Shown here one piece after another: positions 6,893 through 52,253 of a stretch of 64,000 nt of DNA. The DNA comes from Candidatus Omnitrophota bacterium (lineage in GTDB: Bacteria; Omnitrophota; Gorgyraeia; Aquiviventales; Aquiviventaceae). The position numbers and the translations under genes were made by a program. The DNA is taken from NCBI GenBank assembly GCA_030697665.1, contig JAUYPJ010000080.1:5475-69474 (forward strand). The letters run 5' to 3'. Each line of letters starts with the position of its first letter. Within the stretch, counting starts at the first letter, position 1. Below the pieces are notes generated by a model, which was not told the DNA's origin, searched no databases, and was given only the letters and a program-made list of their open reading frames with translations.

Positions 6893-7492
6893 ATGCCGGA
6901 TGAGTCGGGGATCATTCGCGCCGTCCTGGATGGGCAGCCGGACCGCTACGCGGAGTTGGTGGACCGATACCAGGGCCGAGCGATCCGGCTGGCGTTCAGC
7001 TTGTTGGGAAACGACGACGACGCCAGGGAGACCTCTCAGGAAGCGTTCCTGAAGGCGTACCGCTCCCTGGGCCGGTTTCGGGGCGAGGCGGCCTTCTCCA
7101 CATGGCTCTTCCGGATCGTGATCAACGAGTGTCGCAGTCGCTGGCGACGTCGGGCCAGAGAGCCGGTCGCGACGGCGCGCATCGGCGGCTCACCTGCCGC
7201 CGATGAGGAGAGCGAAGGGTCGCTCTTCGTGGATCCTGAGGATCCCGGCGCCGATCCCGCCGAGCAGCTTGCGCAACGAGAGCTGGCGCGGCGGCTCAGC
7301 CGTGAGATCGCGCGGCTGCCGATGCAACAGCGCATCGCGTTTGTGTCGCACCACCTCCACGGCTGTTCGCTGGAGGAGACCGCCGCAGTCATGCGCCGCC
7401 GCGTCGGGACGGTGAAATCCCACCTCTTCCGCGCCACGGAGCGCCTCCGGCGCACGCTGGGGCCGTGGCTGACACAGGAGCAACAGGAATGA
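6893..7492 (+). CDS. RNA polymerase ECF-type sigma-70 factor
   Basis: Region 2 (FSTWLFRIVINECRSRWRR) and region 4 (SLEETAAVMRRRVGTVKSHLFRA) signatures. Confidence 0.9.
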   Translation: MPDESGIIRAVLDGQPDRYAELVDRYQGRAIRLAFSLLGNDDDARETSQEAFLKAYRSLGRFRGEAAFSTWLFRIVINECRSRWRRRAREPVATARIGGSPAADEESEGSLFVDPEDPGADPAEQLAQRELARRLSREIARLPMQQRIAFVSHHLHGCSLEETAAVMRRRVGTVKSHLFRATERLRRTLGPWLTQEQQE

Positions 7493-7648
7493 TCCCACCA
7501 CCTGCCGGAGGCGGCACTTCTGTGGATGCTCAGATGCGTCGGATTCGCATGAGGTGGGGGGAGGCGTGCCGCCTGGCCAGCGGTGCAGCGCAAGCGCCTG
7601 TTCGCTGGCCGTCCCGCCGATTGGCGGGACACCGACAGGTGGTGGGAT
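7492..7648. repeat. inverted-repeat clamp: ATCCCACCACCTG (7492-7504) / CAGGTGGTGGGAT (7636-7648), flanked by ATGA on both sides
   Basis: Perfect 13-nt inverted repeat read directly. The right arm contains the SD-like purine tract and the ATG of the downstream gene. The left arm starts in the sigma-factor stop codon. Confidence 0.85.
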
Positions 7649-8192
7649 GAGTTTCACGACGTGGTTGCAGGGGTGGCTGACCCGTCATCCGCTCCGCGAG
7701 CCGTCCGACGGCGAGCGGGCCCGCTATACCGCTGAGGTGATGGCCCGCGTGGAAGCGCTGCGGCCGTCTGCAGCGCCCCGCGACGGATTGGCCCGCTGGG
7801 CCAAGCAGCAGGTGGTGGGATGGCCCCGCCTCGCGCTGGCCATGGCGACCGCGGCCGCCGGAGTGGCGCTCCTCGTCGGACCGATCCACCAGCGCTGGCT
7901 TGCTCAACGCGTGGTCCGTGACGCTGCCGTCTTGGCGAGCCTGGGTGAGGCGATGGCCGAACCGCTTGTCATCGACGACGACGAATCGCTCCGTGAAGCG
8001 CTGGAGGAGCTCGACGCGCTCGTGGTGGCCGAGGCCTCCTCCATTGACGATAGCCAGTGGATCGCCCAGACGCTGGAGCTGCTGGGACAACTTGAGGAAT
8101 GGCCTCCGGGCGGCGACCTCGATCCCTCAAGCGGAGCTGAGGAGTGGATCGACGAGCTTGAGCTGTTGGACGAGAGCGATCTGAACGCCTGA
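7647..8192 (+). CDS. putative anti-sigma factor (single TM, acidic C-terminal domain)
   Basis: Position after the ECF sigma gene. One TM helix (WPRLALAMATAAAGVALLVGPI). Start ATG 7647 is preceded by CAGGTGGTGGG. No recognisable ZAS motif, so the function is inferred from context. Confidence 0.5.
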   Translation: MSFTTWLQGWLTRHPLREPSDGERARYTAEVMARVEALRPSAAPRDGLARWAKQQVVGWPRLALAMATAAAGVALLVGPIHQRWLAQRVVRDAAVLASLGEAMAEPLVIDDDESLREALEELDALVVAEASSIDDSQWIAQTLELLGQLEEWPPGGDLDPSSGAEEWIDELELLDESDLNA

Positions 8193-8924: not shown

Positions 8925-9134
8925 ATGGACCTCATAGAATCCCTCCGCTTGTACCGACTTGAACACCGGCTCACACAGCAAGAGCTTGCCAAGACACTCG
9001 GCGTCTCCTTTATCACCATCAACCGCTGGCTCAATCGGCGCGTCAAACCCAGCCCTCTATTGGAGCATCAGATCAGAAAATTGCTCCACCAGAGCAATAC
9101 GAGGCCGCGGAAGTCTTGGCAGGCAACTCCATGA
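8925..9134 (+). CDS. XRE-family HTH protein (controller/C-protein-like, upstream of methylase)
   Basis: LTQQELAKTLGVSFITINRWLN HTH. AAGGTGA SD lies 6 nt before ATG 8925. The stop overlaps the methylase start (ATGA at 9131-9134). Confidence 0.7.
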   Translation: MDLIESLRLYRLEHRLTQQELAKTLGVSFITINRWLNRRVKPSPLLEHQIRKLLHQSNTRPRKSWQATP

Positions 9135-10609
9135 GCACGCTGGCAGTCGTCGAAAAGAGCCAGGATCAACTGAAGCAGATCGGACGGGAAGACGCTGCTT
9201 TAACAGATCACTTTCGACCGAAACTCAAGGTCAATTATGACCTGACAAGGGCGCTGGTCAGCTTTCAAGCAAACAAGACAGTAGCGGGCTATCGGTGGTT
9301 TAAGTTCAAAGAGGGCTTCTCATCCACTCTGGTCAATTATGTGTTCGATCGATTGCGTATTAGCAGCGGCAAGGTCATTGACCCGTTCACAGGCAGCGGG
9401 GCAACTCTCTTCTCAGCGAGCGGGCGAGGGTTGGATGCCCTGGGCATTGAGCTTCTGCCAGTCGGCTGTGAGATCATCCGAGCGAGGAAGGCAGCCCTTC
9501 AACACCCTGATCGGGTGATCAGTACACTGCGCAACTGGGTGGGGCAAAAACCCTGGCAGACTTCCAATGGCCGACAGGTTCCATTCCAACATCTCAGAAT
9601 TACCGAAGGCGCTTTCCCTCAAAAGACGGAGCGTCGTCTGAAGTCATACGTCGGCGCCCTGAGCGATGTTCGTGATACTGCCTCAGCATCTGTCCTGCGG
9701 TTGGCGCTTCTCAGTATCCTTGAGGAGATCAGCTACACAAGGAAAGACGGCCAATATCTCCGCTGGGATGACAGGTCAGGGAGACGTCAAGGCACCAAAC
9801 TGTTCAACAAAGGCCTGATCCGAGACTTCGATATTGCCATCCTGGACAAGCTGGTCCATATCCTAGACGACCTCGATAGCCCACCCGACCTCTTTGGCAA
9901 TGCTTCAAGGCTAAAACTTTCAGGTCAGGTAGAGGTCGCCTGCGGCTCCTGCTTGGAGGAGCTTCCGAAGCTTCCGACCAATTCTTTCAGTGTACTGATG
10001 ACGTCTCCGCCCTACTGTAATCGCTATGATTACACTAGGACGTATGCCCTTGAACTGGCCTTGCTGGGCATTCATGAGGCCGGCATCCGCCAATTACGAC
10101 AACAGATGCTTTCCTGCACAGTTGAGAACAGGGAGAAGGGCGGTCTTGCTGACTTGGTAGGCGTACAAAACTTTGAGAGGGGCAAACAGATTTTTAATGA
10201 ACAAGTGCTCCTCTCGGCCATTTGTCACCACCTCGACTACTTGAGGGATGAACACCAATTGAACAACTCAGGAATAGCCCGCATGGTGCGCAACTACTTT
10301 TGGGAAATGACCCTTGTCATACTTGAGTGCGCGAGGGTATTACAACCTGGCGCGCCCTTCATCATGGTGAACGATAACGTCCGGTACGCAGGGATTCCTA
10401 TTCCGGTAGACTTGATTCTCTCGCGGATTGCGGAGTGTGCAGGCTTCGAGGTGGAGACGATTTGGGTTCTACCGAAAGGCAAGGGGAACAGCAGCCAGCA
10501 GATGGGTGAGCATGGGCGCGAGGAACTGCGGAAATGCGTGTATGTCTGGAGAGCGCCTACAAGGACACAAGCCAAGCAACAAGTTCCTCTACTTGGTCAT
10601 CAACGGTGA
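9131..10609 (+). CDS. site-specific DNA methyltransferase (N4-C or N6-A, alpha-type motif order)
   Basis: Motif I VIDPFTGSGATL (about aa 85) and motif IV MTSPPYCNRYDY (about aa 290), with about 200 aa between them. Confidence 0.85.
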   Translation: MSTLAVVEKSQDQLKQIGREDAALTDHFRPKLKVNYDLTRALVSFQANKTVAGYRWFKFKEGFSSTLVNYVFDRLRISSGKVIDPFTGSGATLFSASGRGLDALGIELLPVGCEIIRARKAALQHPDRVISTLRNWVGQKPWQTSNGRQVPFQHLRITEGAFPQKTERRLKSYVGALSDVRDTASASVLRLALLSILEEISYTRKDGQYLRWDDRSGRRQGTKLFNKGLIRDFDIAILDKLVHILDDLDSPPDLFGNASRLKLSGQVEVACGSCLEELPKLPTNSFSVLMTSPPYCNRYDYTRTYALELALLGIHEAGIRQLRQQMLSCTVENREKGGLADLVGVQNFERGKQIFNEQVLLSAICHHLDYLRDEHQLNNSGIARMVRNYFWEMTLVILECARVLQPGAPFIMVNDNVRYAGIPIPVDLILSRIAECAGFEVETIWVLPKGKGNSSQQMGEHGREELRKCVYVWRAPTRTQAKQQVPLLGHQR

Positions 10610-11297
10610 GATTTGCTGCTCGCGTCAACTCACCAGTTTGAAGCTGACGAAACAGCTCATCGGCCATCGAAGGGACGATGGCAGCACCCGCAAAAAACAG
10701 TTTTGGGCAGTTCTTGGGAAATCGTTCACGGATTCTGCCCAAAGCGCTCCTGGCCGTTTTCCAGTGCTCATCTGCGCCAGCCGGATCAATCCCTCCTTTC
10801 AGCTCTCCGCAGGCAAGATATCGGGAGTGATCTTCGAGAAGCTCTCGAGCTGATCTTTGGTCGATACGTTTCAGGAGAATGACGTCGATGTTCTTCCCAA
10901 CCAGCCTCGGTGTTCGGTCGAACAGTATCAGGCGTTCATCCCATGAAACACGAGTGATCTTGTCTCCCCTCCGCTCATGTTGGACGGCGATACCTCTGCT
11001 TCGTAAGGCCTTGACGAGGGCGCTCGTAAACTTCCCCTGAGCGAGTGCGCCTGTCATGTTTCGCATCTTCCCGCCAAGCGTGTCACCCCTCGTGAGCAAG
11101 TACCGGTAGAGGAGTTCCTCACGAAAATGATCGTCCGCCTGTTCTCTGATCGTGTTCAGCACAGAACGGACACTCTCTCGAAGCTCATGATCAGCGAAGT
11201 AGCGTTGTGCCTTGTCGGAAAATCCGACGGCGCTTACAAGCGTCTTCAGAGGGACGACTGTTATCACGTCATCAACAGAAGTAGATTTGCGAAGCAT
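10557..11297 (-). CDS. putative type II restriction endonuclease (cognate to adjacent methylase)
   Basis: Convergent with the methylase and overlapping it by 53 nt. KNIDVILL...CGELKGG fits a D..ExK core. The start is uncertain: ATG 11297, or GTG 11399. The track extension to 11738 overlaps the neighbouring gene and was rejected. Confidence 0.55.
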   Translation of the reverse strand: MLRKSTSVDDVITVVPLKTLVSAVGFSDKAQRYFADHELRESVRSVLNTIREQADDHFREELLYRYLLTRGDTLGGKMRNMTGALAQGKFTSALVKALRSRGIAVQHERRGDKITRVSWDERLILFDRTPRLVGKNIDVILLKRIDQRSARELLEDHSRYLACGELKGGIDPAGADEHWKTARSALGRIRERFPKNCPKLFFAGAAIVPSMADELFRQLQTGELTRAANLTVDDQVEELVAWLVSL

Positions 11298-11454
11298 CTC
11301 CCACAATTGGGTGGCCTCCTTGATGAAGGGTGACGTGCGCTGACCCTTCGCTTTGGCCTGTGCGAGGAAACCTGCACACGTCGCTTCTCTGGATGTCACG
11401 AGACTGTTCGCACTGGGAACTCTGTTGGTCACTCGACGGTCTCCGATAACGGAT

Positions 11455-12891
11455 CTACTGGACGGGGGGCGTGGGGGAGGGAAGCCCAGGCGGGCCTGCA
11501 GGGGCGTCGGCTGCGACTCGGAAGCGCTCGGGGCTGACGAGGAGCTCCATGACCTGTTGGGGCAGCTGCACAATGACCTCGCGCCCTTCGATCTGGCCGT
11601 AGCGATTCGTGGATCCCTCGATCGGCGCGCCGACCAGGAGGCGTTGGGGCGGCTGCTCAGGCGTCGTCCAGGCGGCGATCGATCCCACAGGCGGCTGCAC
11701 GCCATAGCGAGCTGGATCTGAGGATGCCTCATCCACAAAGCCGGCGACCTTGAGGCCGGCGAGCTCGCCGAGCCAGTCGTCGACCCGCGAACGGTCCAAC
11801 GCCGTCGCGGAACCCGCTTCGCGCCATTCGCTCTCGGTCCGCTCCATCGTCCAGGGCCGTCCTTCCCGCGTTACCTCGATCTTCGTCACCTGGCCCGTGA
11901 AGAACTCGAAGCAGGAGGTGGCACGCAGCGACGACGGGTCGCTCCACAGCGACTCCACGTCGGCCTTCGCCACGGCATAGAGCGACGGCTCATCGCTGCG
12001 TTTGGCGTAGACCAGCGCCGCGTCGTCAGGAAGCGGGCGGCCAAAGAACAGCGTGATCGACGCGGGGGGCTCCTGCCGGAGCCGAATGGTCAGCTCTGCA
12101 GACGGCTGATCAAACCCCCACGTGGAGAGCGCTTCGACCTGCGGGGCGTCGTCCACAAACCGCGTGATGCGCAGCGCCCGCAGGCGGCTCAGGAACGCCT
12201 CGACCTGGGCTCGATCCGCGTGATCGGTCAGGGCCGGCAGCCCCGGCTGCGCGGGGCTGAGGGCAAGCGTCCAGGTGCCCTGGTCGCGCGTCAGGCTGAA
12301 CGATGACGCGGGGGAGACCGCCGCGAGGCGCTCGACCAGCCAGCTATCGAGTCGGATGAGCAGCGGATCGCGGAACGCCTCGGGGGGATGCTGGGCCGCC
12401 TCGAAGAGGCTGTCCGGGACGACGAAGATCTCCGGGCGGGTGGCGACCTTGACGTAGCGGTTGCTGTGAACCGGCGTCGCTTCACCCAGCAACAGCGTGG
12501 CGGGCGTCCCATTGGCGACGACGGTGAGCTGTCCGACGACCGGATCCAGGCCGAAGGCGCTCGCCTCGAGGGGCCGCTCCGCAGAGCCCGACAGGATGCG
12601 CTCAGCCGTCAGGGGAGCCAACTGGTCCAGGAGTCGATGGACGAGATCGTCATCCGCCCGGACGTTCGCGGGGCTCACGCGCCAGGAGTCCGCTTGGCGG
12701 GTGAGGGTGAGCTTGACGTCGGGCAGATCGAGCAACAGCTGGCTCACCGAGTCCGGAGCGATGTTGAGCACTTCCTTCGAGAGCCGCTGGCGCTCCTCCG
12801 GCGACGGCCGCCGGATCTCATAGCGCGAGAGGTAGGTGCCGATCCCCACGGTGAGAATGAGGAGGGCCGTCGTCGTCTTCCAGTGGCGCAT
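11455..12891 (-). CDS. DUF4340-like protein of GldG-type ABC exporter operon
   Basis: N-terminal TM anchor. Sits last in the ATPase / ABC-2 permease / GldG / DUF4340 gene order. Confidence 0.7.
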   Translation of the reverse strand: MRHWKTTTALLILTVGIGTYLSRYEIRRPSPEERQRLSKEVLNIAPDSVSQLLLDLPDVKLTLTRQADSWRVSPANVRADDDLVHRLLDQLAPLTAERILSGSAERPLEASAFGLDPVVGQLTVVANGTPATLLLGEATPVHSNRYVKVATRPEIFVVPDSLFEAAQHPPEAFRDPLLIRLDSWLVERLAAVSPASSFSLTRDQGTWTLALSPAQPGLPALTDHADRAQVEAFLSRLRALRITRFVDDAPQVEALSTWGFDQPSAELTIRLRQEPPASITLFFGRPLPDDAALVYAKRSDEPSLYAVAKADVESLWSDPSSLRATSCFEFFTGQVTKIEVTREGRPWTMERTESEWREAGSATALDRSRVDDWLGELAGLKVAGFVDEASSDPARYGVQPPVGSIAAWTTPEQPPQRLLVGAPIEGSTNRYGQIEGREVIVQLPQQVMELLVSPERFRVAADAPAGPPGLPSPTPPVQ

Positions 12892-14509: not shown

Positions 14510-15256
14510 TTAAGAGCGCCAGCGGGGGTTGCTGATGACGCGTCCCGTGAGGAACAGGCAGATCAGGCTCAGGCTCAGGTAGAAGCAGATCGGACGCGTG
14601 TCCAGCAGCCCCTTCGAGAAGTGCTGGAGGTGCTCGATGAGGGAGAGGTACTTGATGATGACGCTCGTCTGGGGATCGCGGACGAAGACATCGAGGATGC
14701 CGACGGAGAAGAGGAGCAGGATCGCGACGAAGGTGAGGACTGCGGCGATCACCTGGTTGCGCGTCAGGCTCGAAGCGAGCAGCCCGACCGCCACGAGGAC
14801 CCCGCCCAACAACGCGGTGCCGAGGTAGCCGGTGAAGACCGGGGCCCAGTCGAAGCGCGTCAAGGCGCGCAGGACCACGAAGAAGACGACGGTGGGCGCC
14901 CAGAGCAGGAGGTAGACCAGCCACGCACCGAGGAACTTGGCGACGACCACCTGGAGGTCCGTGACCGGCGCGGTAAGGAGCAGCTCGATGGTGCCGGTGC
15001 GCTTCTCCTCGCTGAACGTCCGCATCGTCAGCAGCGGGACCATGATGAGCACCGCGAACCAGTAGTAGAAGGTGGCCCCGAAAAACATCTCCGCCATCGT
15101 GAGGGACGGGTCCACCCGCGGGTCGTTCAAGACCAGCAGGAGCGTTTGGAAGACGAAGCCTTGCAGGAAGAGGAAGAGCCCCCCGACGACGTACGCGATG
15201 GGGGAGTACCAGAACGCCTTCAGCTCCCGCGTGGTCAACGCCCACAGCGCCGTCAT
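14510..15256 (-). CDS. ABC-2 type transporter permease (GldF-like)
   Basis: Six hydrophobic segments. The start MTALWALTTRELKAF at ATG 15254-15256 overlaps the ATPase stop (ATGA). Confidence 0.8.
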   Translation of the reverse strand: MTALWALTTRELKAFWYSPIAYVVGGLFLFLQGFVFQTLLLVLNDPRVDPSLTMAEMFFGATFYYWFAVLIMVPLLTMRTFSEEKRTGTIELLLTAPVTDLQVVVAKFLGAWLVYLLLWAPTVVFFVVLRALTRFDWAPVFTGYLGTALLGGVLVAVGLLASSLTRNQVIAAVLTFVAILLLFSVGILDVFVRDPQTSVIIKYLSLIEHLQHFSKGLLDTRPICFYLSLSLICLFLTGRVISNPRWRS

Positions 15257-16209
15257 CCCACCACCTGTTGCTCGTGCGTCGTCAGGTGGATGAAGACGTC
15301 TTCCAGGGACGCCTGGGCCTGCGACAGCTCCCGCAGGGCCCACCGGCGCTCCACCGCGAGCCGGAAGATCGCTTCGCGCACGTCGGCGTCCGCGCGGCTC
15401 TGCACGTCGAAGGCGACGAACCCATCGAGGCGGCCCTGCACGTTGACCGAGGTGACCCCGGGCAGCTGCGTCAGCGCCGGCTCGATCTCCGCCGGCTCCC
15501 CCCGCAGTTGCACCCGGACGATCTGCATCCCCTGCAGGCGCTGACGCAGCTGGGCCGGCGTGTCGACTACGACAATCCGGCCCTTGTCGATGATGGCCAC
15601 CCGCTGGCAGATCATCTCGACCTCCGGCAGGATGTGGGTCGAGAGCAGCACCGTGGCGGTTTGGCCCATCGCCATGATCAGCTCGCGGGTCTGGCGGATC
15701 TGGTGCGGGTCGAGTCCAACGGTGGGTTCGTCGAGGATCAGGATCTTCGGGGAGCCCAGCAGGCAGTCGGCGAGCGCCACCCGCTGGCGATAGCCCTTCG
15801 ACAACCGTCCGATGAGTTGGCGCACGGCATCCGTGAGGGCGCAGCGCTCGATGACCGACTCCGCCTGCCGCCGCCGCTGGGCCCGCGCCACCCCTTTGAT
15901 GGCGGCGCGGTAGTGCAGGTACTCTTGGACGCGCAGCTCGGGGTAGAGGACCACGTGTTCCGGCAGGTAGCCGATGCGCCGACGCACCTCCACAGAGTGC
16001 TCGGCGACATCGAGCCCGTCGATGCGGACCGTCCCGTCGGTCGGGCTCAGCATGCCGGTGAGGAGGCGGAGCATCGTCGTCTTCCCCGCGCCGTTGGGGC
16101 CGAGGAAGCCCATGATCTCACCGGCCTGGACGCTGAAGGAGACGTCGCTCAGCGCCGTGACGGTATCGTAGCGCTTGGTGAGGTTCACGACGTCGATCGG
16201 CGTGGACAT
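15253..16209 (-). CDS. ABC transporter ATP-binding protein
   Basis: Walker A GPNGAGKTT, signature LSKGYRQR, Walker B ILILDEPTVGLD. Confidence 0.9.
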   Translation of the reverse strand: MSTPIDVVNLTKRYDTVTALSDVSFSVQAGEIMGFLGPNGAGKTTMLRLLTGMLSPTDGTVRIDGLDVAEHSVEVRRRIGYLPEHVVLYPELRVQEYLHYRAAIKGVARAQRRRQAESVIERCALTDAVRQLIGRLSKGYRQRVALADCLLGSPKILILDEPTVGLDPHQIRQTRELIMAMGQTATVLLSTHILPEVEMICQRVAIIDKGRIVVVDTPAQLRQRLQGMQIVRVQLRGEPAEIEPALTQLPGVTSVNVQGRLDGFVAFDVQSRADADVREAIFRLAVERRWALRELSQAQASLEDVFIHLTTHEQQVVG

Positions 16210-19492: not shown

Positions 19493-19583
19493 CAGTCCAT
19501 AGTCCATAGTCGATAGTCCGACGAAACCGTCAGGGCTACAACGCAGGGTTTGCTATGGACTACGGACTATGGACTATCGACTG
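19493..19583. repeat. hairpin built from tandem GTCCATA/TATGGAC-type units
   Basis: cagtccatagtccatagtcgatagtccg ... ctatggactacggactatggactatcgactg. Related arms occur at 12901-12923 and 39818-39884. Confidence 0.85.
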
Positions 19584-19597
19584 CTCCGAAGCTATTG

Positions 19598-20482
19598 ATG
19601 AGTCCCACGTGGTTGACCCCGAAGTTCATCAGTCAACTGGAAGCGCTCGAGTTATCCATCAGATGGGTTCGGAGCGGGAACACGCTTGGCGGACGCTTCC
19701 CCATCAACCGTCGGGGCTCCTCGATTGAGTTCGCCGATTACGCCGCCTACTCCGCCGGCGACGACATCCGGTCGATCGACTGGAACCTGTACGCCCGCCT
19801 TGAGCGGCTCTTCATCAAGACCTACCACGAGCAGATCGAGCTGTCGGTCGAGCTCATCATCGATGCGACCGGTTCGATGGGATTGCCGACGCCGGAGAAG
19901 TTTGAGCGCGCCAAACGCCTGGCCGTCAGCCTCGGTTACGTCGGGCTCGCCGGGCGCCATCACGTGCGGCTCAGCTGGGTCACGCCGGGACGCGTGACGG
20001 CCAGCCCCTGGTTCCACCGACGGAGCGATCTGGCGCGGATGGCCGAGCAGGCGCAGCCCCTCCATGCCGGCGGGCAAGTCGCGTTCGATGAGTGGATGCG
20101 CCGCGCGGCGGCGGCCCTCCGGGTGCGCGGCGGCCAGGCCGTCGTGATCACCGACGGGATGGTGCCGCCGGCCGAGCTGTTCCGTGCGCTGCACACCCTC
20201 CTCGTGCGCAACCTCGAAGTCAAGCTCATCCAGGTGTTGACGCCGCAGGAGCTGCACCCGGCCAGGCTCTTGCGGGGCGGCCTGCTCGTCGACGTGGAGA
20301 CGGGACGCACCCACCAGTTGGCGCACAGCCCCGCGGAGCTTGAGCGGGCGGTGGCCGAGCACAACGAGGGGTTGGCCCGTTTCTGCAAGCGACGCGGGAT
20401 TGCCTTTGCCCAGCACCGGCTGGATGAGTCACTCGAGACGTTTGTGCTCAAGACGCTTCCCGTCCACGGCTTCCTCGAGTAA
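19598..20482 (+). CDS. DUF58 domain protein (vWA-like, MoxR partner)
   Basis: DDIRSIDWNLYARLERLFIKTYHEQ and IIDATGSM motifs. ATG 19598 was chosen because the TTG 19550 extension is encoded by the repeat hairpin. Confidence 0.8.
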   Translation: MSPTWLTPKFISQLEALELSIRWVRSGNTLGGRFPINRRGSSIEFADYAAYSAGDDIRSIDWNLYARLERLFIKTYHEQIELSVELIIDATGSMGLPTPEKFERAKRLAVSLGYVGLAGRHHVRLSWVTPGRVTASPWFHRRSDLARMAEQAQPLHAGGQVAFDEWMRRAAAALRVRGGQAVVITDGMVPPAELFRALHTLLVRNLEVKLIQVLTPQELHPARLLRGGLLVDVETGRTHQLAHSPAELERAVAEHNEGLARFCKRRGIAFAQHRLDESLETFVLKTLPVHGFLE

Positions 20483-20494
20483 CAATCCGACATG

Positions 20495-20645
20495 ATCCCC
20501 CCACCTACGCCAGCTTGCCGGAGGCAAGCTCGAATGCGCGTGCTCGGAGAGTCCGGGTGGAGGATGTGGCCTCAGGCCGTCGCATTCGTCACGGCGGCTC
20601 AGGGCGCGACCACCACCAGCCGCCGTGAGGCGCAGGTGGGGGGAT
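20495..20645. repeat. inverted-repeat clamp: ATCCCCCCACCT (20495-20506) / AGGTGGGGGGAT (20634-20645), flanked by ATGA
   Basis: Perfect 12-nt inverted repeat. The right arm includes the SD-like tract and ATG 20644. Relative to the copies at 7492 and 47384, the A-to-C change in the left arm is matched by T-to-G in the right arm. Confidence 0.85.
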
Positions 20646-22461
20646 GACGCTCCTCGCCCCCCTGGCCCTGCTGTGGCTCGGCAGCATCCCCGTGCTGGTG
20701 TGGCTCTGGCGCAGGACGTCGACCCACCGCCAGATCCGCGTGCCGAGCCTCGTCCCCTTCGAGCATCTGCTCCGGCGCCCTCCTCGGCGCCGCAGCCGCC
20801 TGGTCGTGAACGCGCTGTTCTGGTTGCAGCTCGGCGCGCTCCTCGGCCTGACGCTCGCGATGGCGCAGCCCGTCCTCTTCACGCGCCGTGGCCGCATGAC
20901 CCTCGTCATTCTGGATACCTCCGCGAGCATGAGCGCGCGTCTGGGGAGTTCCAGCGCGTTGGCGCGCGCCCAGCGCGCGCTGGCGGATCGGATCGCGCGC
21001 GCAGCCCACGCCGAGCAGTTCTTCCTCGTGACGACCTCTCCGGTGACCGCCCTCACGCCGCGGCCGACGAGCGACCGGCTGGCGCTGCAGCGGGCGATCC
21101 AGGCCTCGCAGGTCAGCCACCTGAGTGGGAACCTGGCCACCGCCGCGCGGATCGGCCGGGCCCTGATGGGCAGCGAGCCTGACGCGGTGTTGGTGGTGAC
21201 CGATGAGCCAGAGTCGCTTCCCACAGGCGCTGAGCACGTCCAGTGGGTGACGGTCGGCGCGACACTCCCGAACGTGGCGTTCGTCGGGCTCGATGCGTCA
21301 GGGCCGTTGTGCGAGTCGGCCGCGCCGCATCTGCTGGCCACGGTGCAGAACTTCTCGGAGGAGTCGATTCCCGTGACGGTGAGCGCTCACCAGGGCATGC
21401 AGGTGCTTGCGCAGGCCGCCGCCAAGATCGCCCCGCGCGCCCGGCAAGCGATTGCCCTTGCGCTGCCTGAAGGGACGGAAGGGTGGCTTGAGCTGGCGAT
21501 GGCCGGCGCGCCAGACCACCTCAGCGTGGACAATCGGGCGTGGATGATGCTCCGGCGGAATGCGCGGCTGCCGATCGTGGTGCGCTCACAGCGCGAACCG
21601 TTCCTGCGCGCGGTCTCCACGTGGCTCGACGCCTGCGAGGCCTTGAGGTGGACCACCGATCCCGCCGCCGTACAGGGGCCCTTCGTGCTCCTCACCGATC
21701 GCGAGGAAGAGCCGTTGCGCTCATCCGAGGCCACGATGGCGTTCCTGCCGCCGGCCGGCGCCTCACCGAGGCTCAGCACATGGGTGCGCTCATCAGACCA
21801 CCCGGTCAGCGCCTATCTCTCGCCGGTGGAGTCCGTGGCGGCCACCCTCAACCTATCGACGGCGGCGGGCCTCTCGGGAGCGCCGGTGGTCTCCGGCCTG
21901 ATCGACGGCCGCCGCGTGCCGATTGTGCTGGCGGAGGAGCACGACGGTCGACGGCGGCTCACCATGCGCTTCGATCCGGCCCAGAGTGGGGACTCGACGG
22001 TCGCGGTGCTGACCTTTTTGAACGGCGTGCGGTGGCTCATGGGACAGGCGGAGGCCGTCACGACGGGCCAGTCGCTGAGCGCGGGAGGGTTCGGCCCAGA
22101 CGCGGTGACGGTGCATCGCCCCGACGGCTCCACCGCGACGTCGTCGGTCGAGGCCGGCGCTGTCCGCTATGACGAGACGACGCTGGCCGGGCGGTACCGG
22201 CTGGTGCAGGGCGCGACAGAGGTCGTCGCGGCGGTGAACTTCTTTGATCCGCTGGAATCCAATCTGCTGGATCGCGTCTCGACGTGGGATCCATCCCTCC
22301 GCCTGCTGGGTTCGCCAGAGGCGAACGCTCCGAAACAGACCAGCCGCCTGCATCAGCGCCAGCAGGTGGTGGGGGCCTACCCGTTGGCCCACGGCGCGAT
22401 CCTGCTCCTGCTGCTCCTCGTGCTGGTCGAGTGGCGCCTCTATACCCTCAAGCGATCATGA
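20644..22461 (+). CDS. BatA-like protein (aerotolerance-regulator N-terminal TM domain + vWA)
   Basis: N-terminus LLAPLALLWLGSIPVLVWLW...VPSLVPF, then the vWA MIDAS start LVILDTSASMS. Confidence 0.75.
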   Translation: MTLLAPLALLWLGSIPVLVWLWRRTSTHRQIRVPSLVPFEHLLRRPPRRRSRLVVNALFWLQLGALLGLTLAMAQPVLFTRRGRMTLVILDTSASMSARLGSSSALARAQRALADRIARAAHAEQFFLVTTSPVTALTPRPTSDRLALQRAIQASQVSHLSGNLATAARIGRALMGSEPDAVLVVTDEPESLPTGAEHVQWVTVGATLPNVAFVGLDASGPLCESAAPHLLATVQNFSEESIPVTVSAHQGMQVLAQAAAKIAPRARQAIALALPEGTEGWLELAMAGAPDHLSVDNRAWMMLRRNARLPIVVRSQREPFLRAVSTWLDACEALRWTTDPAAVQGPFVLLTDREEEPLRSSEATMAFLPPAGASPRLSTWVRSSDHPVSAYLSPVESVAATLNLSTAAGLSGAPVVSGLIDGRRVPIVLAEEHDGRRRLTMRFDPAQSGDSTVAVLTFLNGVRWLMGQAEAVTTGQSLSAGGFGPDAVTVHRPDGSTATSSVEAGAVRYDETTLAGRYRLVQGATEVVAAVNFFDPLESNLLDRVSTWDPSLRLLGSPEANAPKQTSRLHQRQQVVGAYPLAHGAILLLLLLVLVEWRLYTLKRS

Positions 22462-26503: not shown

Positions 26504-26764
26504 GTGTTCAGCCAATCCCCCTCACCCTACAATGCGGTCGTGGACAAGGACGTCCGGGTTCAATTCGCCAAGCACTTGCGGAAACTCCGCAGGCAGAAGG
26601 GCTGGACGCAAGAGGAACTCGCCGAGCGGGCGGACCTGGCCTACCGCCACGTCCAGCGTCTGGAGAGTCTGAAGACTCCCCCACCCGCCAAGATCGACAC
26701 ACTGCACAAGCTGGCGAAAGCCTTCAAGACCTCACCTTCCAAGCTGCTGGATTTCTCCTCGTAA
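26504..26764 (+). CDS. XRE-family HTH transcriptional regulator
   Basis: LRKLRRQKGWTQEELAERADLAYRHVQRLE. Confidence 0.75.
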   Translation: MFSQSPSPYNAVVDKDVRVQFAKHLRKLRRQKGWTQEELAERADLAYRHVQRLESLKTPPPAKIDTLHKLAKAFKTSPSKLLDFSS

Positions 26765-26951
26765 GCAAACTCAGTCGTTCAGACGTTTGGGAGTTGACCT
26801 GCCTCGTGGTATCGTCATCCCTCAGACACCAGTGGTGGAGGAAGTTCTTCTATGTGATCAGCGGGCGGGTGCGGCGCTCAATCGGGCACTAGCCCCCTCG
26901 GCTTGTTTTCGACCCCCACGGAGGCAAGAACTTCACGAAACCGTACCAAAG

Positions 26952-27305
26952 TTACGGTGGGGAGCCGGGGTCTCTCGGCGCCAGGGTCTCCAAGGTGGGC
27001 AGGAGACGAGGGATGTCGATCGTCGCGGTCTTCCAGACCTCTTCAAGATCGACTTCATCGTAGGCATGAATCAGCTTGTCGCGCATCCCGGCCATGAGTG
27101 TCCAGGGAATCGCGGAATGGTGGGCCCGAAACGCGTCCGACAGCCGCTTCGCGGCTTCGCCGAAGATCAGGAGCTGGTGGAGGATGGCGGACTGGGTCTT
27201 GAGGTCGGTCAGGAAGGCGGGCTTCTCAAGGTTGCTTCGGAACTCTACGACCAACCGGGCGGCTCGGACGAGGTCCAGCACGCTCGCCTGGTCATTGCGC
27301 GACAT
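26952..27305 (-). CDS. hepT: HepT-type HEPN toxin (DUF86)
   Basis: R-x4-H motif in MRDKLIHAY. Overlaps mntA by 14 nt. Confidence 0.8.
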   Translation of the reverse strand: MSRNDQASVLDLVRAARLVVEFRSNLEKPAFLTDLKTQSAILHQLLIFGEAAKRLSDAFRAHHSAIPWTLMAGMRDKLIHAYDEVDLEEVWKTATIDIPRLLPTLETLAPRDPGSPP

Positions 27306-27600
27306 AGTAGGGCTTGGCACTGTCCAGAATGGCCCGGCGGCGAATCCAGTTGGGACTGCGCTCAATCGCGCGCCGGCTCACGAGCTCGACCTTGCGGCCC
27401 AGCAGCGCGCTCAACTCCGCTTCCATCTGGAGATGGTCCAAGAGGCCCCAGTTCGCCTCCGGCGCGAAGCTGACCAGGACATCCACATCGCTGCTGGGCC
27501 CGAAGTCCTCCCGGAGGACGGAGCCGAAGAAGTCCAGCTCGCGGACCTTCCAGCGCTGACAGAGCTCAGCAAGCTGTGTCTCGTCCACTGCAATGCGCAT
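27292..27600 (-). CDS. mntA: MntA-type nucleotidyltransferase antitoxin
   Basis: FGSVLREDFGPSSDVDVLV matches the GS-x10-DxD minimal nucleotidyltransferase motif. Confidence 0.8.
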   Translation of the reverse strand: MRIAVDETQLAELCQRWKVRELDFFGSVLREDFGPSSDVDVLVSFAPEANWGLLDHLQMEAELSALLGRKVELVSRRAIERSPNWIRRRAILDSAKPYYVAQ

Positions 27601-27770
27601 CTTCAACCTCTCCCTCGCCCCCCTAGCGTACCATCCCAAGAATCCAAAAACAAGCACACGAAGCGCACCAGGGCGATCTCCGGGTGGGTTGTGAGATAGG
27701 CCGCCACGGTGCGCAGGGCACTGTGGAGCCAACGATTTACTCAGTCAATTGAGTCAATTGTCTCCTCGAC

Positions 27771-27890
27771 GAACGTCCTCTGCGTCGCCGTGCCGCTGTC
27801 GCTTTGATCCTGCGCTCCCCCTCAACGTGTCCCTTCGAACCCGGTACGGCCACCGTGCAGACTACAGGACGAAGGGGGGTTGCGACAGAC
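27771..27890. repeat. copy A of about 100-nt composite repeat (block Y 27771-27809, block X 27825-27849, degenerate tail)
   Basis: Y = gaacgtcctctgcgtcgccgtgccgctgtcgctttgatc and X = acgtgtcccttcgaacccggtacgg. Both recur at 29567-29707. Confidence 0.8.
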
Positions 27891-27899
27891 GCTGGACGG

Positions 27900-28217
27900 T
27901 TAGGCGTGAGCGTAGCGGGGTGCCCGCTGCCTGATCTTGATGACGAGTTCCCCGTTGAGGGCTTCGACGACTTTCAGGAGCGTATCGAGCGTGAAGTTGT
28001 GCGTCTCGGCGCGTTCCAGCTTGGCAATGAACGGCTGGTTCACCTTCAAGCGCTTGGCCAGGGCAGCTTGCGTGAGGCCCTGCCGCTGCCGTAAGCCCAC
28101 GAGGGCCTCCACCAGCCGCAGCTTGTGCAGCTCCTCCTCGTACCCCTGGCGGAAGCCGGGCCGCTTGAGCAGCCGATGCACAACCTCCCGATGGGGGATG
28201 GCCCGTACGTTCTTCAT
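27900..28217 (-). CDS. HigA-like XRE-family antitoxin
   Basis: GLTQAALAKRLKVNQPFIAKLE HTH. ATG at 28215-28217. Confidence 0.7.
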   Translation of the reverse strand: MKNVRAIPHREVVHRLLKRPGFRQGYEEELHKLRLVEALVGLRQRQGLTQAALAKRLKVNQPFIAKLERAETHNFTLDTLLKVVEALNGELVIKIRQRAPRYAHA

Positions 28218-28332: not shown

Positions 28333-28356
28333 ACAGAGTATATAACCTACAAGTTA

Positions 28357-29460: not shown

Positions 29461-29566
29461 TATTTCGTCAAGACCACCCGCAATCCGATTCACCCGTTTC
29501 CGTGAACCTGAGGCGTTCCAAACGAGCTAGCTCCCGCGGCGTTGATTTGCCCATCCAGGAAAATCA

Positions 29567-31479: not shown

Positions 31480-31495
31480 TGCGATATCATCCGGT

Positions 31496-46332: not shown

Positions 46333-47385
46333 TTAGAGGCGGACCTTGCTGCCGACTTCGCTCCACCATCGGTCCAGCTCAGGGGTGAAATACTTGAGCC
46401 GGGTCTTCTTATATTCTTTCGTGCTGAAGAGATTTTTGTGCGGGAACTGCCCGGCGCGCTCCTCGATGCGCCGCACGACGTCCATGCAGGCGGGATACGT
46501 TTCCGCGTGGATCATCGTGAACAGCGCGTAGGGCCAGCTGGGGTAGACGGGCCGACGGTAGCAATGGCTCACTTCCCTGAAGCGCGCCATCTGTTCCCCC
46601 GCCCGGTCCACCTCCTCGGGCGGCGCCTGCCACACCACCATGGCGTTCGCTTTGAAGCCGGCGTTGCGATGGTACAAGATCGCGGCGAACCGCCGCATGT
46701 AGCCCAGGTGCTCCATCTTCTTGGCCCACGCGAACAGCTCCTCTTCGGTCATCCCGGCCTGCTCCGCCCAGACGGCATACGGCAGCTCCAGCAGCGGGAG
46801 GTCTTCCTGGAGGATCCGGATCAACCGGACGTCCTGCTCGGTCAGCGGCGGTTTCGGCGCCATCCGGCGGGCTTCGTCGTAGATCTCCTCCGGGTTTTCC
46901 AGCGCCGCCTCCTGGCCGGTGAGGTCCAGCTTGACCCCGATCTTGTAGAGCCGCAGGGTGGGGAGCATGATCGTCTCCTCCGCCTTGCCCAGGGTATGGA
47001 GGATCCTGACGATCTGCTCCAGCGAGTCCTGCGGGGGCATGGCGATCGTGAACCAGATGTTGAAGGAATCGTTGCGCTTGTAATTATGGCTGACGCCGGG
47101 ATGCTGGTTGACGACCTCTGCAGCCTCATCGACCCGGGCCGGATCGACGCGCATGGCGACGAGGCTGCTCTGGTAACCCAGGGCGCGGGTGTCGAAAATC
47201 GCGCAGAGCTGCCGGATGACCATGGTCGCCTTGAGCCGGGCGATGCGCTCGAGGCACTCCTGTTCCGTAACGCCTAGGAGCTCCCCCAGCCGTTGAAACG
47301 GGCGATGGTCGATGGGGAACTGTTTTTGGAGCTCGGTGAGGAGCGCCTTGTCGACATCGTCAAACGTCTGGGTGGCTGTCGTCAT
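46333..47385 (-). CDS. fused AsnC/Lrp-like siroheme decarboxylase (AhbA/AhbB or NirDL-like)
   Basis: Two tandem modules, each an HTH plus a VSHNYKR / VSHCYRR signature. Start ATG 47383-47385. Confidence 0.75.
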   Translation of the reverse strand: MTTATQTFDDVDKALLTELQKQFPIDHRPFQRLGELLGVTEQECLERIARLKATMVIRQLCAIFDTRALGYQSSLVAMRVDPARVDEAAEVVNQHPGVSHNYKRNDSFNIWFTIAMPPQDSLEQIVRILHTLGKAEETIMLPTLRLYKIGVKLDLTGQEAALENPEEIYDEARRMAPKPPLTEQDVRLIRILQEDLPLLELPYAVWAEQAGMTEEELFAWAKKMEHLGYMRRFAAILYHRNAGFKANAMVVWQAPPEEVDRAGEQMARFREVSHCYRRPVYPSWPYALFTMIHAETYPACMDVVRRIEERAGQFPHKNLFSTKEYKKTRLKYFTPELDRWWSEVGSKVRL

Positions 47386-47498
47386 CCCACCACCTGTCGC
47401 TGGGTCTGCCTTCGGCAGACCCGGTGCCAGGTCCTCAACGGCCCTGTCCGCCTCGTCATGGCACACCAGCCTTCGGCTGGTGCGACAGGTGGTGGGAT
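47384..47498. repeat. inverted-repeat clamp: ATCCCACCACCTGTCGC (47384-47400) / GCGACAGGTGGTGGGAT (47482-47498), flanked by ATGA in transcript orientation
   Basis: Perfect 17-nt inverted repeat. The interior holds two GAA/TTCG-looped hairpins. On the minus-strand transcript the 3' arm carries the SD-like tract and the ATG of the decarboxylase gene. Confidence 0.85.
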
Positions 47499-48517
47499 CA
47501 TGACGCTTGCGCGGCCGGCGCCGGCAGTCCGAACTCATGGGCGGCGAGGTCGCGGAGGCGCATCAGCTCATCCGGGGTCAAGCCCGTGAGGTCTGGGGCT
47601 GCCGCGAACTCGCGCAGCGCCTCTTCGGTGGTGATGTTCGGCAGGACCGAGGCCACGGATGGCTCCGCGAGGATAAACTGGAGGGCCGCCTGACCGAGGG
47701 TGCGGCCCGTCTGCTCCGTGAGGAATGCCAGCTGGCGGACCTTCCTGAGGCCGTCGATCTGCCATTGGCGCTTGCGCTCCTCCGTGGAGACGCGATGATA
47801 GCGATGGTCTTGTTCGGTGAACGAGGTCTGTTCGGTCACCGACCCGTCAAGGAGGCCCGAGGCGTGGGGGACCCGGATCAGGAAGCTGCACGGCCGGCGG
47901 CGTCCCATGGCGAAGAGGGCTTCCCCCAGCATCTGCTCCAGGAGGTTGTAGATGATGTAGACCACATCGACGCCGCGGTGGGTGATGGCGTACGCCCCCT
48001 CCTCGATCTGTCGCGGCGCGATGGCGGGGCCCAGCGCCGGACCGTAGGCGCGGATCTTGCCCTCCTGCTTGAGCGTCTCGAGCGTCGCGAAGAGATCGTC
48101 CCGCTGCAGGGCGTCCAGGCGCGGGTTGTGGAGCTGGTAGAGGTCGATCACGTCCGTCTGCAGGCGCCGGAGGCTTTCTTCCAGGGCGCTCCGGACGTAG
48201 TCGGGCCGCCAGTCTTGCGGCAGCTCTTCGTGGCCGCGCCGGGCGTTGTGGTGCGAGACATCGTAGCCGAATTTCGTGCCGATGGTCAGGCGGCGGCGCT
48301 GAGGACCCAACGCCTTGGCCAGGATCGTCTCGCCCAGGCCGTTGCCGTAGGTGTCCGCGGTATCGAAGAAGGTGATGCCCGCCTCGTACGCCTGCTGGAG
48401 CAGCCTAACCCCCACCGCCTCCTCGGTGATGCCCCACCAGGTGGTGGCGACGGTCCAGACCCCGAAGCCGATCTCGGAGACGGTCACATCGGTTGTCCCA
48501 ATGTTTCGATATCTCAT
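47498..48517 (-). CDS. aldo/keto reductase
   Basis: FFDTADTYGNGLGE and the overall AKR pattern. Start MRYRNIG. Confidence 0.9.
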   Translation of the reverse strand: MRYRNIGTTDVTVSEIGFGVWTVATTWWGITEEAVGVRLLQQAYEAGITFFDTADTYGNGLGETILAKALGPQRRRLTIGTKFGYDVSHHNARRGHEELPQDWRPDYVRSALEESLRRLQTDVIDLYQLHNPRLDALQRDDLFATLETLKQEGKIRAYGPALGPAIAPRQIEEGAYAITHRGVDVVYIIYNLLEQMLGEALFAMGRRRPCSFLIRVPHASGLLDGSVTEQTSFTEQDHRYHRVSTEERKRQWQIDGLRKVRQLAFLTEQTGRTLGQAALQFILAEPSVASVLPNITTEEALREFAAAPDLTGLTPDELMRLRDLAAHEFGLPAPAAQAS

Positions 48518-50895: not shown

Positions 50896-52253
50896 AACCG
50901 TCCATTGTGAAGCCCGTGTCTCTCAACGCCAAGATACTGGCCGGATCCCTCGCATTGGGGGTCCTGATCGTGGCCATTGGTGCGCTGGCGGTGCATATGA
51001 GTCATACGGTTGCTCGTTCCTCGACGGCGATCCTGGTTGAAAACGTCTCCAGCCTCAAGGCGGCTGAAGAGCTGGAAATCGCCTTACTGGATCAGAAAGG
51101 GGTTGTGGGCAGCTACCTGTTGGATGGCGATGAGAAGTGGCTGCGGCTCCTGGAGGAGAAGCGCAAGAAATACGACGAGTGGTTTGCCCGGGCGAAAGAC
51201 GTGGCGCTCACGGGTCACGAGCAGCGCATCCTTGAGCGGATCCGACTCCTCTATCAGGAGTATGACCGCCTGCGATTCCAGGTCATCCGGCTCGCTCAGG
51301 ACGGCAGCCGCTTCGCAGCCCAGCAGCTGTTGCTGAACCGCGTCCGTGAGATCGTGGAGTCGCTCTATGACGCCTGCGAGGAACTCCTGTTCTTCAACGA
51401 GCAGTTGATCGCCGAGTCACAGAAGAAAAGCCAGCAGCAGCTTACCTGGTTCCAAGCTGTGCTCTGGAGCAGCATCGCGGTGGCGATCTTCCTGGGCCTG
51501 CTCGGAGGATGGATGGTCGCTCGGGGCATGACGAAGCGGCTGGTGCAATCCGAGAAACTGGCGTCCCTGGGACACATGGCAGGTCTGGTCGCCCATGAGG
51601 TGCGCAATCCCCTCACGGCAATCAAGATGCGGGTTCACTCGCTTCAGGAGGAACTGGTTGCTTCTGTCTCAAGCCAGGATGATGTGGAAGTCATCCGGCA
51701 GGAAATCGAGCGACTGGAGCGGATCGTCCAGAACTTCCTCGACTTCGTGCGGCTCCCAGAACCTAAGATTCAACCGCTCTCACTGAGCGACGTCATCAAA
51801 CGAGCTCTTGAAGTTCTGAGGCCGAATCTGGAGGAACACGCGGTTCAGGTCACGATGCGCTTGTCTGATGGGCTTCCCGCTATTCAGGGTGACGCCGAGC
51901 AGTTGGAGCAGGTGTTCTTGAACCTGCTCCTGAACGCCATCCAGGCGATGCCGGGAGGGGGCGCCATCGAACTGGCGGCATCCTGGATCAAAGGCCGCAC
52001 GGAGACGGACGGCTCGATAGAAGTGGCCGTGAACGACACAGGACCTGGTATTCCAAAGGAGCTACGCGAAAAGATCTTTGACCCCTTCTTCACCACCAAG
52101 GCCAATGGCATCGGCCTGGGGCTTTCGCTGGCCAAAAAAGTCGTGGAGCAGCATCGAGGGGTCATTGAAGTGCAGGACCGCAATGGATCGGGCACGGCGG
52201 TGACCATCCGGCTTCCTGCCCGACAGCCTGTTGAGGCGCAGGTGGTAGGATGA
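50892..52253 (+). CDS. sensor histidine kinase (NtrB/AtoS-like)
   Basis: Two TM helices, H-box [10 protein letters not shown], and N/G boxes LLLNAIQAM and DTGPGI. Confidence 0.85.

Follow-up and report, generated by a model that had tools for sequence, protein, structure and literature searches.

The window described here is a 64,000-nucleotide stretch of contig JAUYPJ010000080.1 (GenBank assembly GCA_030697665.1) from a Candidatus Omnitrophota bacterium. It contains three copies of a short inserted element with terminal inverted repeats (TIRs), and this element is abundant in the uncultured phylum Omnitrophota. The combined reading, which we hold to be probable, is that of a non-autonomous element resembling a miniature inverted-repeat transposable element (MITE) that also serves as a translation relay at the ATGA junction, the four nucleotides in which a stop codon and the next start codon overlap. 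The first of the three sites had been described, from the letters of the DNA, as a clamp between the gene of an extracytoplasmic function (ECF) sigma factor and its putative anti-sigma gene, in which an anti-Shine-Dalgarno (anti-SD) arm would hide the downstream gene's ribosome-binding site (RBS) and start codon. That original prediction offered two explanations, a translational-coupling or riboregulator device on the one hand and a MITE-like element on the other.

In copy 1, the left arm ATCCCACCACCTG (7492-7504) and its exact reverse complement, the right arm CAGGTGGTGGGAT (7636-7648), are 13 nucleotides long, and the right arm contains an SD-like tract and has as its last two bases the A and T of the ATG at 7647-7649, the start of an open reading frame (ORF) of 181 amino acids. 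These arms are as originally described. The 131-nucleotide interior between them, its hairpin gtcccgcc-gatt-ggcgggac, and the ATGA on both sides (7489-7492 and 7647-7650) were also found where they had been placed. The parts of copy 1 and the two genes that adjoin it are the following.

6893..7492, plus strand: ECF sigma gene upstream of copy 1, with Pfam domains Sigma70_r2 and Sigma70_r4_2
7489..7650, plus strand: mini-ORF of copy 1, 53 amino acids, MIPPPAGGGTS...RQVVG and stop, running from the original ATG of the ATGA overlap to the TGA that overlaps the rebuilt ATG
7492..7508, plus strand: 5′ strand of the closing helix, the anti-SD arm, read as I-P-P-P in the mini-ORF
7493..7647, plus strand: inserted element copy 1, TCCCACCACCTG to CAGGTGGTGGGA, 155 bp, whose flanks align base for base with the empty junctions of contigs L111-L114
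7632..7648, plus strand: 3′ strand of the closing helix, with the SD-like AGGTGGT and the first two bases of the downstream ATG
7648..7650, plus strand: right TGA of the 3-bp target duplication, which is also the stop codon of the mini-ORF
7647..8192, plus strand: downstream gene of copy 1, 181 amino acids, no Pfam family, in the position expected of an anti-sigma gene

The stop codon of the sigma gene, TGA at 7490-7492, ends in the A with which the left arm begins, and it doubles as the left copy of the target duplication. The mini-ORF is represented in the ORF list of the window by a same-frame ORF at 7465-7650, and the NCBI annotation of the 181-amino-acid ORF uses the identical start (P0001, 100% identity, from a Candidatus Omnitrophota metagenome-assembled genome, or MAG).

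Copy 1 is an inserted MITE-like element and not a locally evolved riboregulator. Homologues of its downstream protein, 68-81% identical, are encoded on four metagenomic contigs (L111-L114) that keep the gene order of sigma gene, 181-amino-acid gene and CDP-OH_P_transf gene. A comparison of orthologous junctions had been proposed as a check, and in all four contigs the junction between the sigma gene and the downstream gene is a plain, uninterrupted ATGA, so the insert is absent there. The window reads ...ggagcaacagga ATGA, then the element (TCCCACCACCTG...CAGGTGGTGGGA), then TGA gtttcacgacg, while L111 reads ...ggagcaacacgc ATGA gcttcacgacg; L112 is the same as L111 at this point (..caacacgc ATGA gcttcacgacg), and L113 and L114 are empty likewise. 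Because the plain ATGA is common to four contigs, it is unlikely that the empty junctions arose by secondary precise deletion. The idea of a riboregulator that arose locally was rejected on account of this empty ATGA in relatives and of interiors that occur in either orientation.

Other junctions tell the same story. An occupied site in L050, cATGA[..]TGAgcg, corresponds to aATGAgcg in L087, and further empty/occupied pairs are L076/L077 and L102/L098. The window itself holds an empty orthologue, on the minus strand at 38681-38696, of a junction that carries a 133-nucleotide element in L093; here TGATGA lies between an NlpC/P60 gene (38693-39802) and a DUF819 gene (37365-38693).

The pattern recurs within the window. 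The two further sites named in the original prediction, at 20495-20645 and 47384-47498, are both real and have the same layout.

20492..20647, plus strand: mini-ORF of copy 2, 51 amino acids, the element proper being 20496-20644
47382..47501, minus strand: mini-ORF of copy 3, 39 amino acids, the element proper being 47385-47497

Copy 2 is found between a DUF58 gene (19550-20482) and a BatA/VWA gene (20644-22461), and in the ORF opened by its right-arm ATG the match to the BatA Pfam profile starts with residue 1. Its arms, at 20495-20507 and 20633-20645, are 2 and 1 bases off the consensus and complementary to each other at 12 of 13 positions. Copy 3 is found between an aldo/keto reductase gene (47498-48553) and a gene for a NirDL-like siroheme decarboxylase (46333-47385), both on the minus strand, and its arms (47384-47396 and 47486-47498) are exact. 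All three copies sit between consecutive genes, as had been claimed, but at copy 2 the upstream gene does not stop at the left TGA: the DUF58 gene ends with TAA (20480-20482), 9 nucleotides before the left ATGA. Counting with up to two mismatches, the arm 13-mer occurs 13 times in the window compared to 1.75 expected, a number that 0 of 100 shuffles reached, and the paired-arm pattern occurs at exactly the three sites compared to 0 expected.

Members of the family outside the window were collected by scanning for paired arms in species-representative genomes, with a search pattern that demands near-perfect arms. This yielded more than 120 copies beyond the window's three. Among the matches listed, there are at least 109 loci from about 27 assemblies, which are mostly labelled Omnitrophota or Omnitrophica, with some Planctomycetales and one Auribacterota, and the GC content of these loci lies between 0.36 and 0.71; viral contigs gave no copies. 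The set analysed below consists of the 121 copies from the scan that could be oriented, by means of their duplicated triplet. The elements are 102-172 bp long, with 12-bp TIRs (TCCCACCACCTG/CAGGTGGTGGGA). They share their arms, and their interiors are mostly unalignable, forming Blastn clusters of at most 6 copies and occurring in both orientations relative to the gene. With one exception, pairs of clustered copies whose interiors are 70-93% identical lie next to genes that are not homologous. Four of the five junctions that are occupied in two species hold unrelated interiors, which means that the same junctions have been hit repeatedly. A minimal form, two arms joined by a 5-nucleotide loop, is found at about 4128-4169 of L063.

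The triplets that flank these copies are TGA on both sides in 115 cases and TAA on both sides in 6, and this covariation of left and right is what is expected of a true target duplication. Among the TAA cases that were looked at, three have the sequence GGGATAATG, which is the second common kind of stop/start overlap. Only TGA/TCA and TAA/TTA are found as duplicated triplets, a 3-bp T-N-A pattern. The earlier suggestion of a MITE-like element was therefore right as to the insertion itself, given the empty orthologous sites, and is to be amended in its dimensions: the duplication is 3 bp, T(G/A)A, and not the 4-bp ATGA, and the TIR is 12 bp rather than 12-17 nucleotides. It had also been proposed that the element brings its own SD and supplies part of the downstream start codon; what it brings is an SD-like tract and its terminal A, which gives ATG together with the duplicated TG. 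Because the last A of the element and the duplicated TG rebuild ATG(A), both reading frames are left untouched.

The element has every MITE feature that was tested for, with the autonomous partner as the exception: a size below about 300 bp without a transposase gene, TIRs, a target duplication relative to the empty site, and dispersed copies at unrelated loci. We regard the insertion and the mobility of the element as practically certain.

The placement of the arms relative to genes is clearly not random. In 110/121 copies an ORF that has 60 or more codons, or continues past the end of the locus, begins at the right-arm ATG; by the same measure, one is closed by the left TGA in 90/121, and both are true of 85/121. 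The median in-frame ORF is 215 codons upstream and 235 codons downstream, compared to 0-42 in control frames. An A precedes the left TGA in 95/117 copies, and with GTG and TTG counted as well as ATG, a left start codon is present in 110/121; the left flank is rich in G at positions -15 to -9, as a relic of the original start's SD would be. The SD-like AGGTGGT of the right TIR lies 3 nucleotides upstream of the rebuilt ATG. In this phylum, AGGUGGU could presumably pair with the conserved 3′ tail of 16S ribosomal RNA, AUCACCU, with one G-U pair, at a spacing that we take to be equivalent to about 7 nucleotides from a GGAGG core. Two simpler views of the arms were discarded. The left arm is not a look-alike of the 16S 3′ tail and the 13-mer is not a universal SD motif, as empty junctions use ordinary AGGAG-type SDs and the 13-mer occurs nowhere but in the context of elements or as a solo remnant. 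A weak palindromic preference, GGA-TGA-TCC, is seen in the flanks.

The start of rplN, the gene of ribosomal protein L14, begins ATGATCC... and is occupied by unrelated elements in L020 and L095 (two MAGs) and empty in L101 and L017. The empty L101 site, GGAGTGGTGGGATGATCC, is very like a right TIR followed by TGA and the beginning of a left TIR, which hints at a preference of the element for targets that resemble its own ends.

The arms are predicted to form a closing helix of 17 bp in the RNA. The 13 outer pairs are fixed, or nearly so, by the search pattern, and the four inner pairs are free. These inner pairs are Watson-Crick in 102-117 of the 121 copies with three or four pair types each, compared to 5/121 at position 18, and columns 14-17 show 31-65 double changes each. 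Overall, 97.7% of cells are paired, and the covariation score is 0.270 compared to 0.064 in shuffles, 0 of 500 of which scored as high. Position 6 shows 16 double changes from A-U to C-G. In copy 1, the helix consists of 13 bp, then one C/A mismatch and then 3 bp.

The closing stem is present in the minimum free energy (MFE) fold of all 121 copies, and three inner hairpins are present in 82 of them. The predicted helix over the SD and the AUG amounts to about -25 to -30 kcal/mol. The interiors of the three window copies are more stable than dinucleotide shuffles (z = -3.2, -3.2 and -4.8), and copy 1 with its flanks folds at -110.9 kcal/mol (z = -6.1). Within subfamilies, stems are kept by compensatory changes while loops are hypervariable. 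The downstream SD and AUG are thus predicted to be paired with upstream sequence, as in other cases of SD sequestration, and the covariation supports this; from these folds we infer that the helix forms in vivo. The anti-SD/SD clamp of the original prediction accordingly survives as a predicted structure, with arms paired in every MFE fold and a covarying inner stem, and not as a regulated device.

A regulated device would be a clamp selected by the host, such as a riboregulator or thermosensor, in which a signal or trans factor opens the sequestered RBS and thereby tunes the ratio of upstream to downstream protein. The helix that is predicted in every copy and covaries, the arms that are conserved while interiors diverge, and the interiors that are more structured than shuffles would all suit such a device. 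However, the element is missing from the same junction in close relatives, the occupied junctions are functionally unrelated (sigma, BatA, siroheme decarboxylase, rplN and ABC transporters), the orientation of the interior is arbitrary and its sequence mostly unalignable, and the conservation of the arms is partly ascertainment by the search pattern. A riboswitch or riboregulator would be expected to have a strand-specific conserved core and an Rfam family, neither of which is seen here, and Rfam searches at gathering and permissive E-value thresholds returned only sub-threshold noise from microRNA and small nucleolar RNA hairpins. We consider a host-selected clamp very improbable.

The element has a single ORF, the mini-ORF of 34-56 codons, and its frame is conserved. 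Measured from arm to arm, 99/121 copies have a length of 1 mod 3 (p=6.7e-28), with 21 distinct lengths represented. This means that the left ATG is in frame with ATC CCA CCA CCT ... CAG GTG GTG GGA TGA, and the mini-ORF reads M-I-P-P-P...Q-V-V-G-stop, with a stop codon that overlaps the rebuilt ATG by 4 nucleotides. An ATGA overlap thus joins the mini-ORF to the downstream gene and, in most copies, also to the upstream gene. The mini-ORF is open throughout in 92/121 copies, among them 12 of 19 from loci below 50% GC, and those of all three window copies are open too. Frame 0 is stop-free in 98 copies, compared to 45 and 49 for the other forward frames. By type of duplication, the mini-ORF is open in 92/115 TGA-type copies compared to none of the 6 of the TAA type, where a left start codon is absent (p=1.2e-4). 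Most indels within subfamilies have a length divisible by 3, and the TAA-type member of one cluster is 7 nucleotides short.

It is the frame, and not a protein, that is under selection, and no selection is visible at the amino-acid level. This follows from the even distribution of variable columns over the three codon positions (125/131/119 of about 261 each, or 0.48/0.50/0.46), which shows no bias, and from the peptides, for which there was no Pfam match and no homologue by word search of 5.8 billion proteins. On these grounds a conserved small protein was rejected. The broader possibility that these are real small-protein genes, a MIPPP...QVVG peptide family with a function of its own to which the inverted repeat is secondary, could draw on the open frame in 92 copies, with a start codon and a plausible upstream SD. 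Against it, the peptides cannot be aligned between subfamilies and their conserved N- and C-termini are simply the TIRs read in frame, and together with the equal codon-position variability and the empty searches this makes such genes extremely unlikely.

The same lack of amino-acid selection is what would be expected of a purely selfish MITE without any relay, for which the SD and ATG supplied by the TIR would let copies at start codons survive and the mini-ORF would be a by-product, untranslated or irrelevant. Such an element would also share the insertion, target duplication and mobility that are observed, and many frames are open by chance in GC-rich sequence. It would leave unexplained, however, why lengths are so strongly 1 mod 3 over 21 distinct values, why subfamily indels are mostly multiples of 3, and why frame and openness are lost in exactly the six TAA-type copies that have no left start codon. 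Moreover, an unopened 17-bp helix of the predicted stability should silence the downstream genes, which include rplN. For these reasons a selfish element and nothing more seems to us distinctly improbable.

The reading that we prefer is that of a translationally "transparent" transposon which relays coupled ribosomes, and we think it fairly likely. After insertion, the left copy of TGA still terminates the upstream gene, and the terminal A of the right TIR and the duplicated TG recreate the downstream ATG(A) behind the SD-like AGGTGGT. In the RNA, the TIRs and the four covarying inner pairs would form the 17-bp helix, usually around three hairpins, and bury the new SD and AUG. The original start codon and the old SD would remain at the left edge, where they would now open the mini-ORF, which would span the whole element and end at the TGA that overlaps the new AUG by 4 nucleotides. 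Ribosomes arriving from the upstream gene or from the old RBS would translate the mini-ORF and melt the helix. Termination on AUGA would then lead to the downstream start by termination-reinitiation, on the freed SD, or both. Models of RNA unfolding and of reinitiation are both established for natural gene pairs (PMC12548453). From frame and helix we infer that coupling works as this relay model describes, and near-transparency to operon expression would allow copies at start codons to persist.

Pro-Pro-Pro, near the N-terminus of the mini-ORF, is a stall motif that depends on elongation factor P (EF-P), and in this phylum it would presumably hold the ribosome on the 5′ arm.

Several observations weigh against the relay model. 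About a quarter of the copies have no long ORF that ends at the left TGA, and the mini-ORF is broken or out of frame in 29/121; coupling cannot work in the same way in either group. In these GC-rich, palindromic sequences 41-50% of the reverse-strand frames are also stop-free, and for this reason the periodicity of length, rather than the openness of the ORF, carries most weight. Translation of the mini-ORF is suggested by one feature of the sequences, the conservation of the frame. Because arms had to be near-perfect to fit the search pattern, ascertainment accounts for part of the invariance of the outer 13 bp, and copies that have decayed, such as any at neutral intergenic sites, are under-sampled. 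According to a report noted in the review PMC12548453, coupling in a random-library screen was less efficient when there was structure just downstream of an upstream stop codon. Finally, 843 kb of loci and the ORFs of the window that were scanned yielded neither an autonomous element nor a transposase with these TIRs.

The question of how the element is mobilised is separate. When solo arms were examined over the same 843 kb, the only pair wider than 220 bp with matching target duplications was a 226-bp element (L051), and nothing of the size of an insertion sequence (IS) was found. A Pfam scan of 10 window ORFs with low GC content at third codon positions (GC3) gave restriction-modification genes and no transposase domain.

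As a lead only, IS5 or PIF-Harbinger-type transposons and Tourist-like MITEs make 3-bp TNA duplications. The Omnitrophota element is like them in its 3-bp T-N-A duplication (TGA/TCA, TAA/TTA) and short TIRs, and unlike them in that no transposase accompanies it in the loci and window ORFs scanned. Its TIR resembles no IS end known to us, and we know of no bias towards ATGA start codons in the IS5/PIF-Harbinger group.

Tandem arrays occur at 3135-3437 of L039, 62-343 of L028 and about 3830-4110 of L010, and in these arrays neighbouring copies share a single TGA, which creates the 12-3-12 palindrome CAGGTGGTGGGA-TGA-TCCCACCACCTG.

A site-specific recombinase or a single-stranded DNA (HUH) enzyme could move the element in place of DDE transposition, with this palindrome as its site and TGA or TAA as the crossover core; such an enzyme concerns the mobilisation step only and is compatible with the relay model. 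The tandem copies give exactly the required 12-3-12 site, the covariation of the inner stem and the conservation of hairpins suggest a role for a folded single strand, the search for a DDE partner in the DNA scanned gave none, and the same junctions are hit repeatedly. On the other hand, TGA and TAA are both duplicated and the flank preference is weak, a staggered TNA cut fits equally well, and no recombinase candidate was found either. We rate this route as rather unlikely.

Two bolder versions would make the family more than a parasite that is tolerated, and it is unlikely, if somewhat less so than this, that one or the other applies. In the first, the element would be an RBS-targeting transposition system moved by some enzyme, whose end (SD-like tract, A and TGA) would mimic an RBS-plus-ATGA site; the same junctions are hit repeatedly. 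In the second, it would be a phylum-wide gating module, in which the 17-bp clamp and the N-terminal Pro-Pro-Pro stall peptide would tie hundreds of operon-internal genes strictly to upstream translation and possibly to EF-P.

In its logic, the closest precedent for the translational relay is the mycobacterial interspersed repetitive unit (MIRU), which we regard as an analogue and not as a home for the Omnitrophota element. MIRUs are direct tandem units of 40-100 bp, known as variable-number tandem repeats, and have no terminal inverted repeats. The Omnitrophota element differs here, having TIRs and a clamp and only occasional tandem pairs. It also has ATGA overlaps at both ends, 12-bp TIRs, a 3-bp duplication, the 17-bp clamp and three inner hairpins, it rebuilds the start codon from its own terminal base, and it belongs to another phylum; the two were compared by description. 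In the review PMC12548453, which cites Supply et al. 1997, MIRUs are described as mobile units that insert at start codons, with an internal ORF coupled at -4 nucleotides, and this coupling (ATGA) is thought to minimise the effect on host gene expression. To the extent of that description, the two are alike in being short and apparently mobile, in lying at start codons within operons and in having an internal ORF coupled by ATGA; here, the start-codon position is found in 110 and the internal ORF with a 4-nucleotide overlap in 92 of the 121 copies.

Known bacterial MITEs, such as Correia/NEMIS in Neisseria, ERIC/IRU, RUP, BOX, and RPE in Rickettsia, are likewise small, have TIRs or long palindromes and many copies, and carry no transposase. 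They too are found within transcription units and fold into stable RNA hairpins. The duplication made by Correia elements is TA, and promoters or RNase III sites are present on them; RPEs lie within ORFs and are tolerated because they insert in frame. To our knowledge, none of these has been described on a stop/start overlap, donating an SD and the A of ATG while keeping its own overlapping ORF in frame. Literature searches on Omnitrophota repeats and on MITEs at stop/start overlaps found no report of this family or of such a MITE.

Natural coupled gene pairs offer a parallel for the relay. In rpmI-rplT, in MS2 coat-lysis and at ATGA or TGATG overlaps, translational coupling takes place through RNA unfolding and termination-reinitiation. 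As is described for such coupling (PMC12548453, PMC6728339), upstream sequence is predicted to pair with the downstream RBS in a helix that the translating ribosome would open, and there is a 4-nucleotide stop/start overlap. Unlike in these pairs, the helix and both overlaps are brought by a mobile element, and coupling would run through a mini-ORF of 34-56 codons.

Arms also occur singly in the window, as follows.

7809..7821, plus strand: solo right arm CAGGTGGTGGGAT, exact, inside the downstream gene of copy 1, read as Q-V-V-G-W
15253..15267 (arm 15255-15267), minus strand: solo right arm CAGGTGGTGGGATGA at the ATGA overlap of an ABC ATPase gene (15253-16209) and an ABC-2 permease gene, the ATPase ending in ...QVVG and stop
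52239..52253 (arm 52239-52251), plus strand: solo right arm CAGGTGGTAGGATGA, 1 mismatch, at the ATGA overlap of a histidine kinase gene (50892-52253) and a sigma-54 response regulator gene, the kinase ending in ...QVVG and stop

At the position of 7809-7821, CAATGGCTCGCGTGG or a close variant stands in the four orthologues, and 12 additional nucleotides are present in the window just upstream. Since seven changes fall within 15 nucleotides, the sequence suggests conversion from an element, or the remnant of one, rather than point mutation. The solo arms at 15253-15267 and 52239-52253 look like 5′-truncated elements whose tail has been captured by the upstream gene. A solo arm in L020 (around 2862) retains 13 nucleotides of a subfamily interior. 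Near the solo arm at 15255, ATCCACCTG was considered as a degenerate partner arm and dismissed, being the I-H-L codons of the conserved ABC ATPase C-terminus. A degenerate pair of arms with 2 mismatches each, 83 nucleotides apart, is found on the plus strand at 22293-22375 in the 3′ coding part of the BatA/VWA ORF, where the right arm reads QQVVG; this may be an old element that was absorbed into the coding region.

Some other features of these sequences are recorded here. The orthologous ECF sigma gene of L115 (896-1501, GCA_016187645.1) is called as two ORFs of 88 and 105 amino acids, probably owing to a frameshift or because it is a pseudogene. In the window, plus-strand segments 57434-57485 and 60418-60479 match the nhaA-I riboswitch family RF03057 above the gathering score, at 43.5 and 40.5 bits. 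At 9116-11738, a gene for a BsoBI-like restriction endonuclease (10557-11738, minus strand) adjoins a weak DNA-methylase ORF. A block of low GC3 at about 26700-36000, which is probably an acquired defence island, contains an N6_Mtase/HSDR_N/Eco57I-type ORF (33987-35978, minus strand), an ORF with a metallo-beta-lactamase fold and several ORFs with no Pfam match.

Two features are new here, the mini-ORF that preserves the frame and the 17-bp helix with its four covarying inner pairs. The interest lies in the relay design and in the scale of the family across the phylum, and the original prediction had included neither that scale nor the mini-ORF. Three full copies in 64 kb extrapolate to the order of a hundred or more per genome. 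In Omnitrophota MAGs, these elements will lead gene callers and operon predictors to report intergenic gaps or small ORFs that are spurious, and solo arms are now the C-terminal QVVG tails of real proteins. Strains can readily be told apart by whether orthologous ATGA junctions carry the element, a use that MIRUs have in mycobacteria. The element may also be seen as a "bicistronic design" part that occurs in nature, in which a leader ORF carries ribosomes through an RBS that is locked; synthetic biologists build such parts deliberately.

If the relay model is true, a mobile element can be translationally invisible, restoring the stop, SD and start of the genes that it splits, and its in-frame length would hand coupled ribosomes across a structured insert of 110-170 nucleotides. 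This would explain how insertions come to lie inside essential operons, for example at the start of rplN, in an uncultured phylum with compact genomes.

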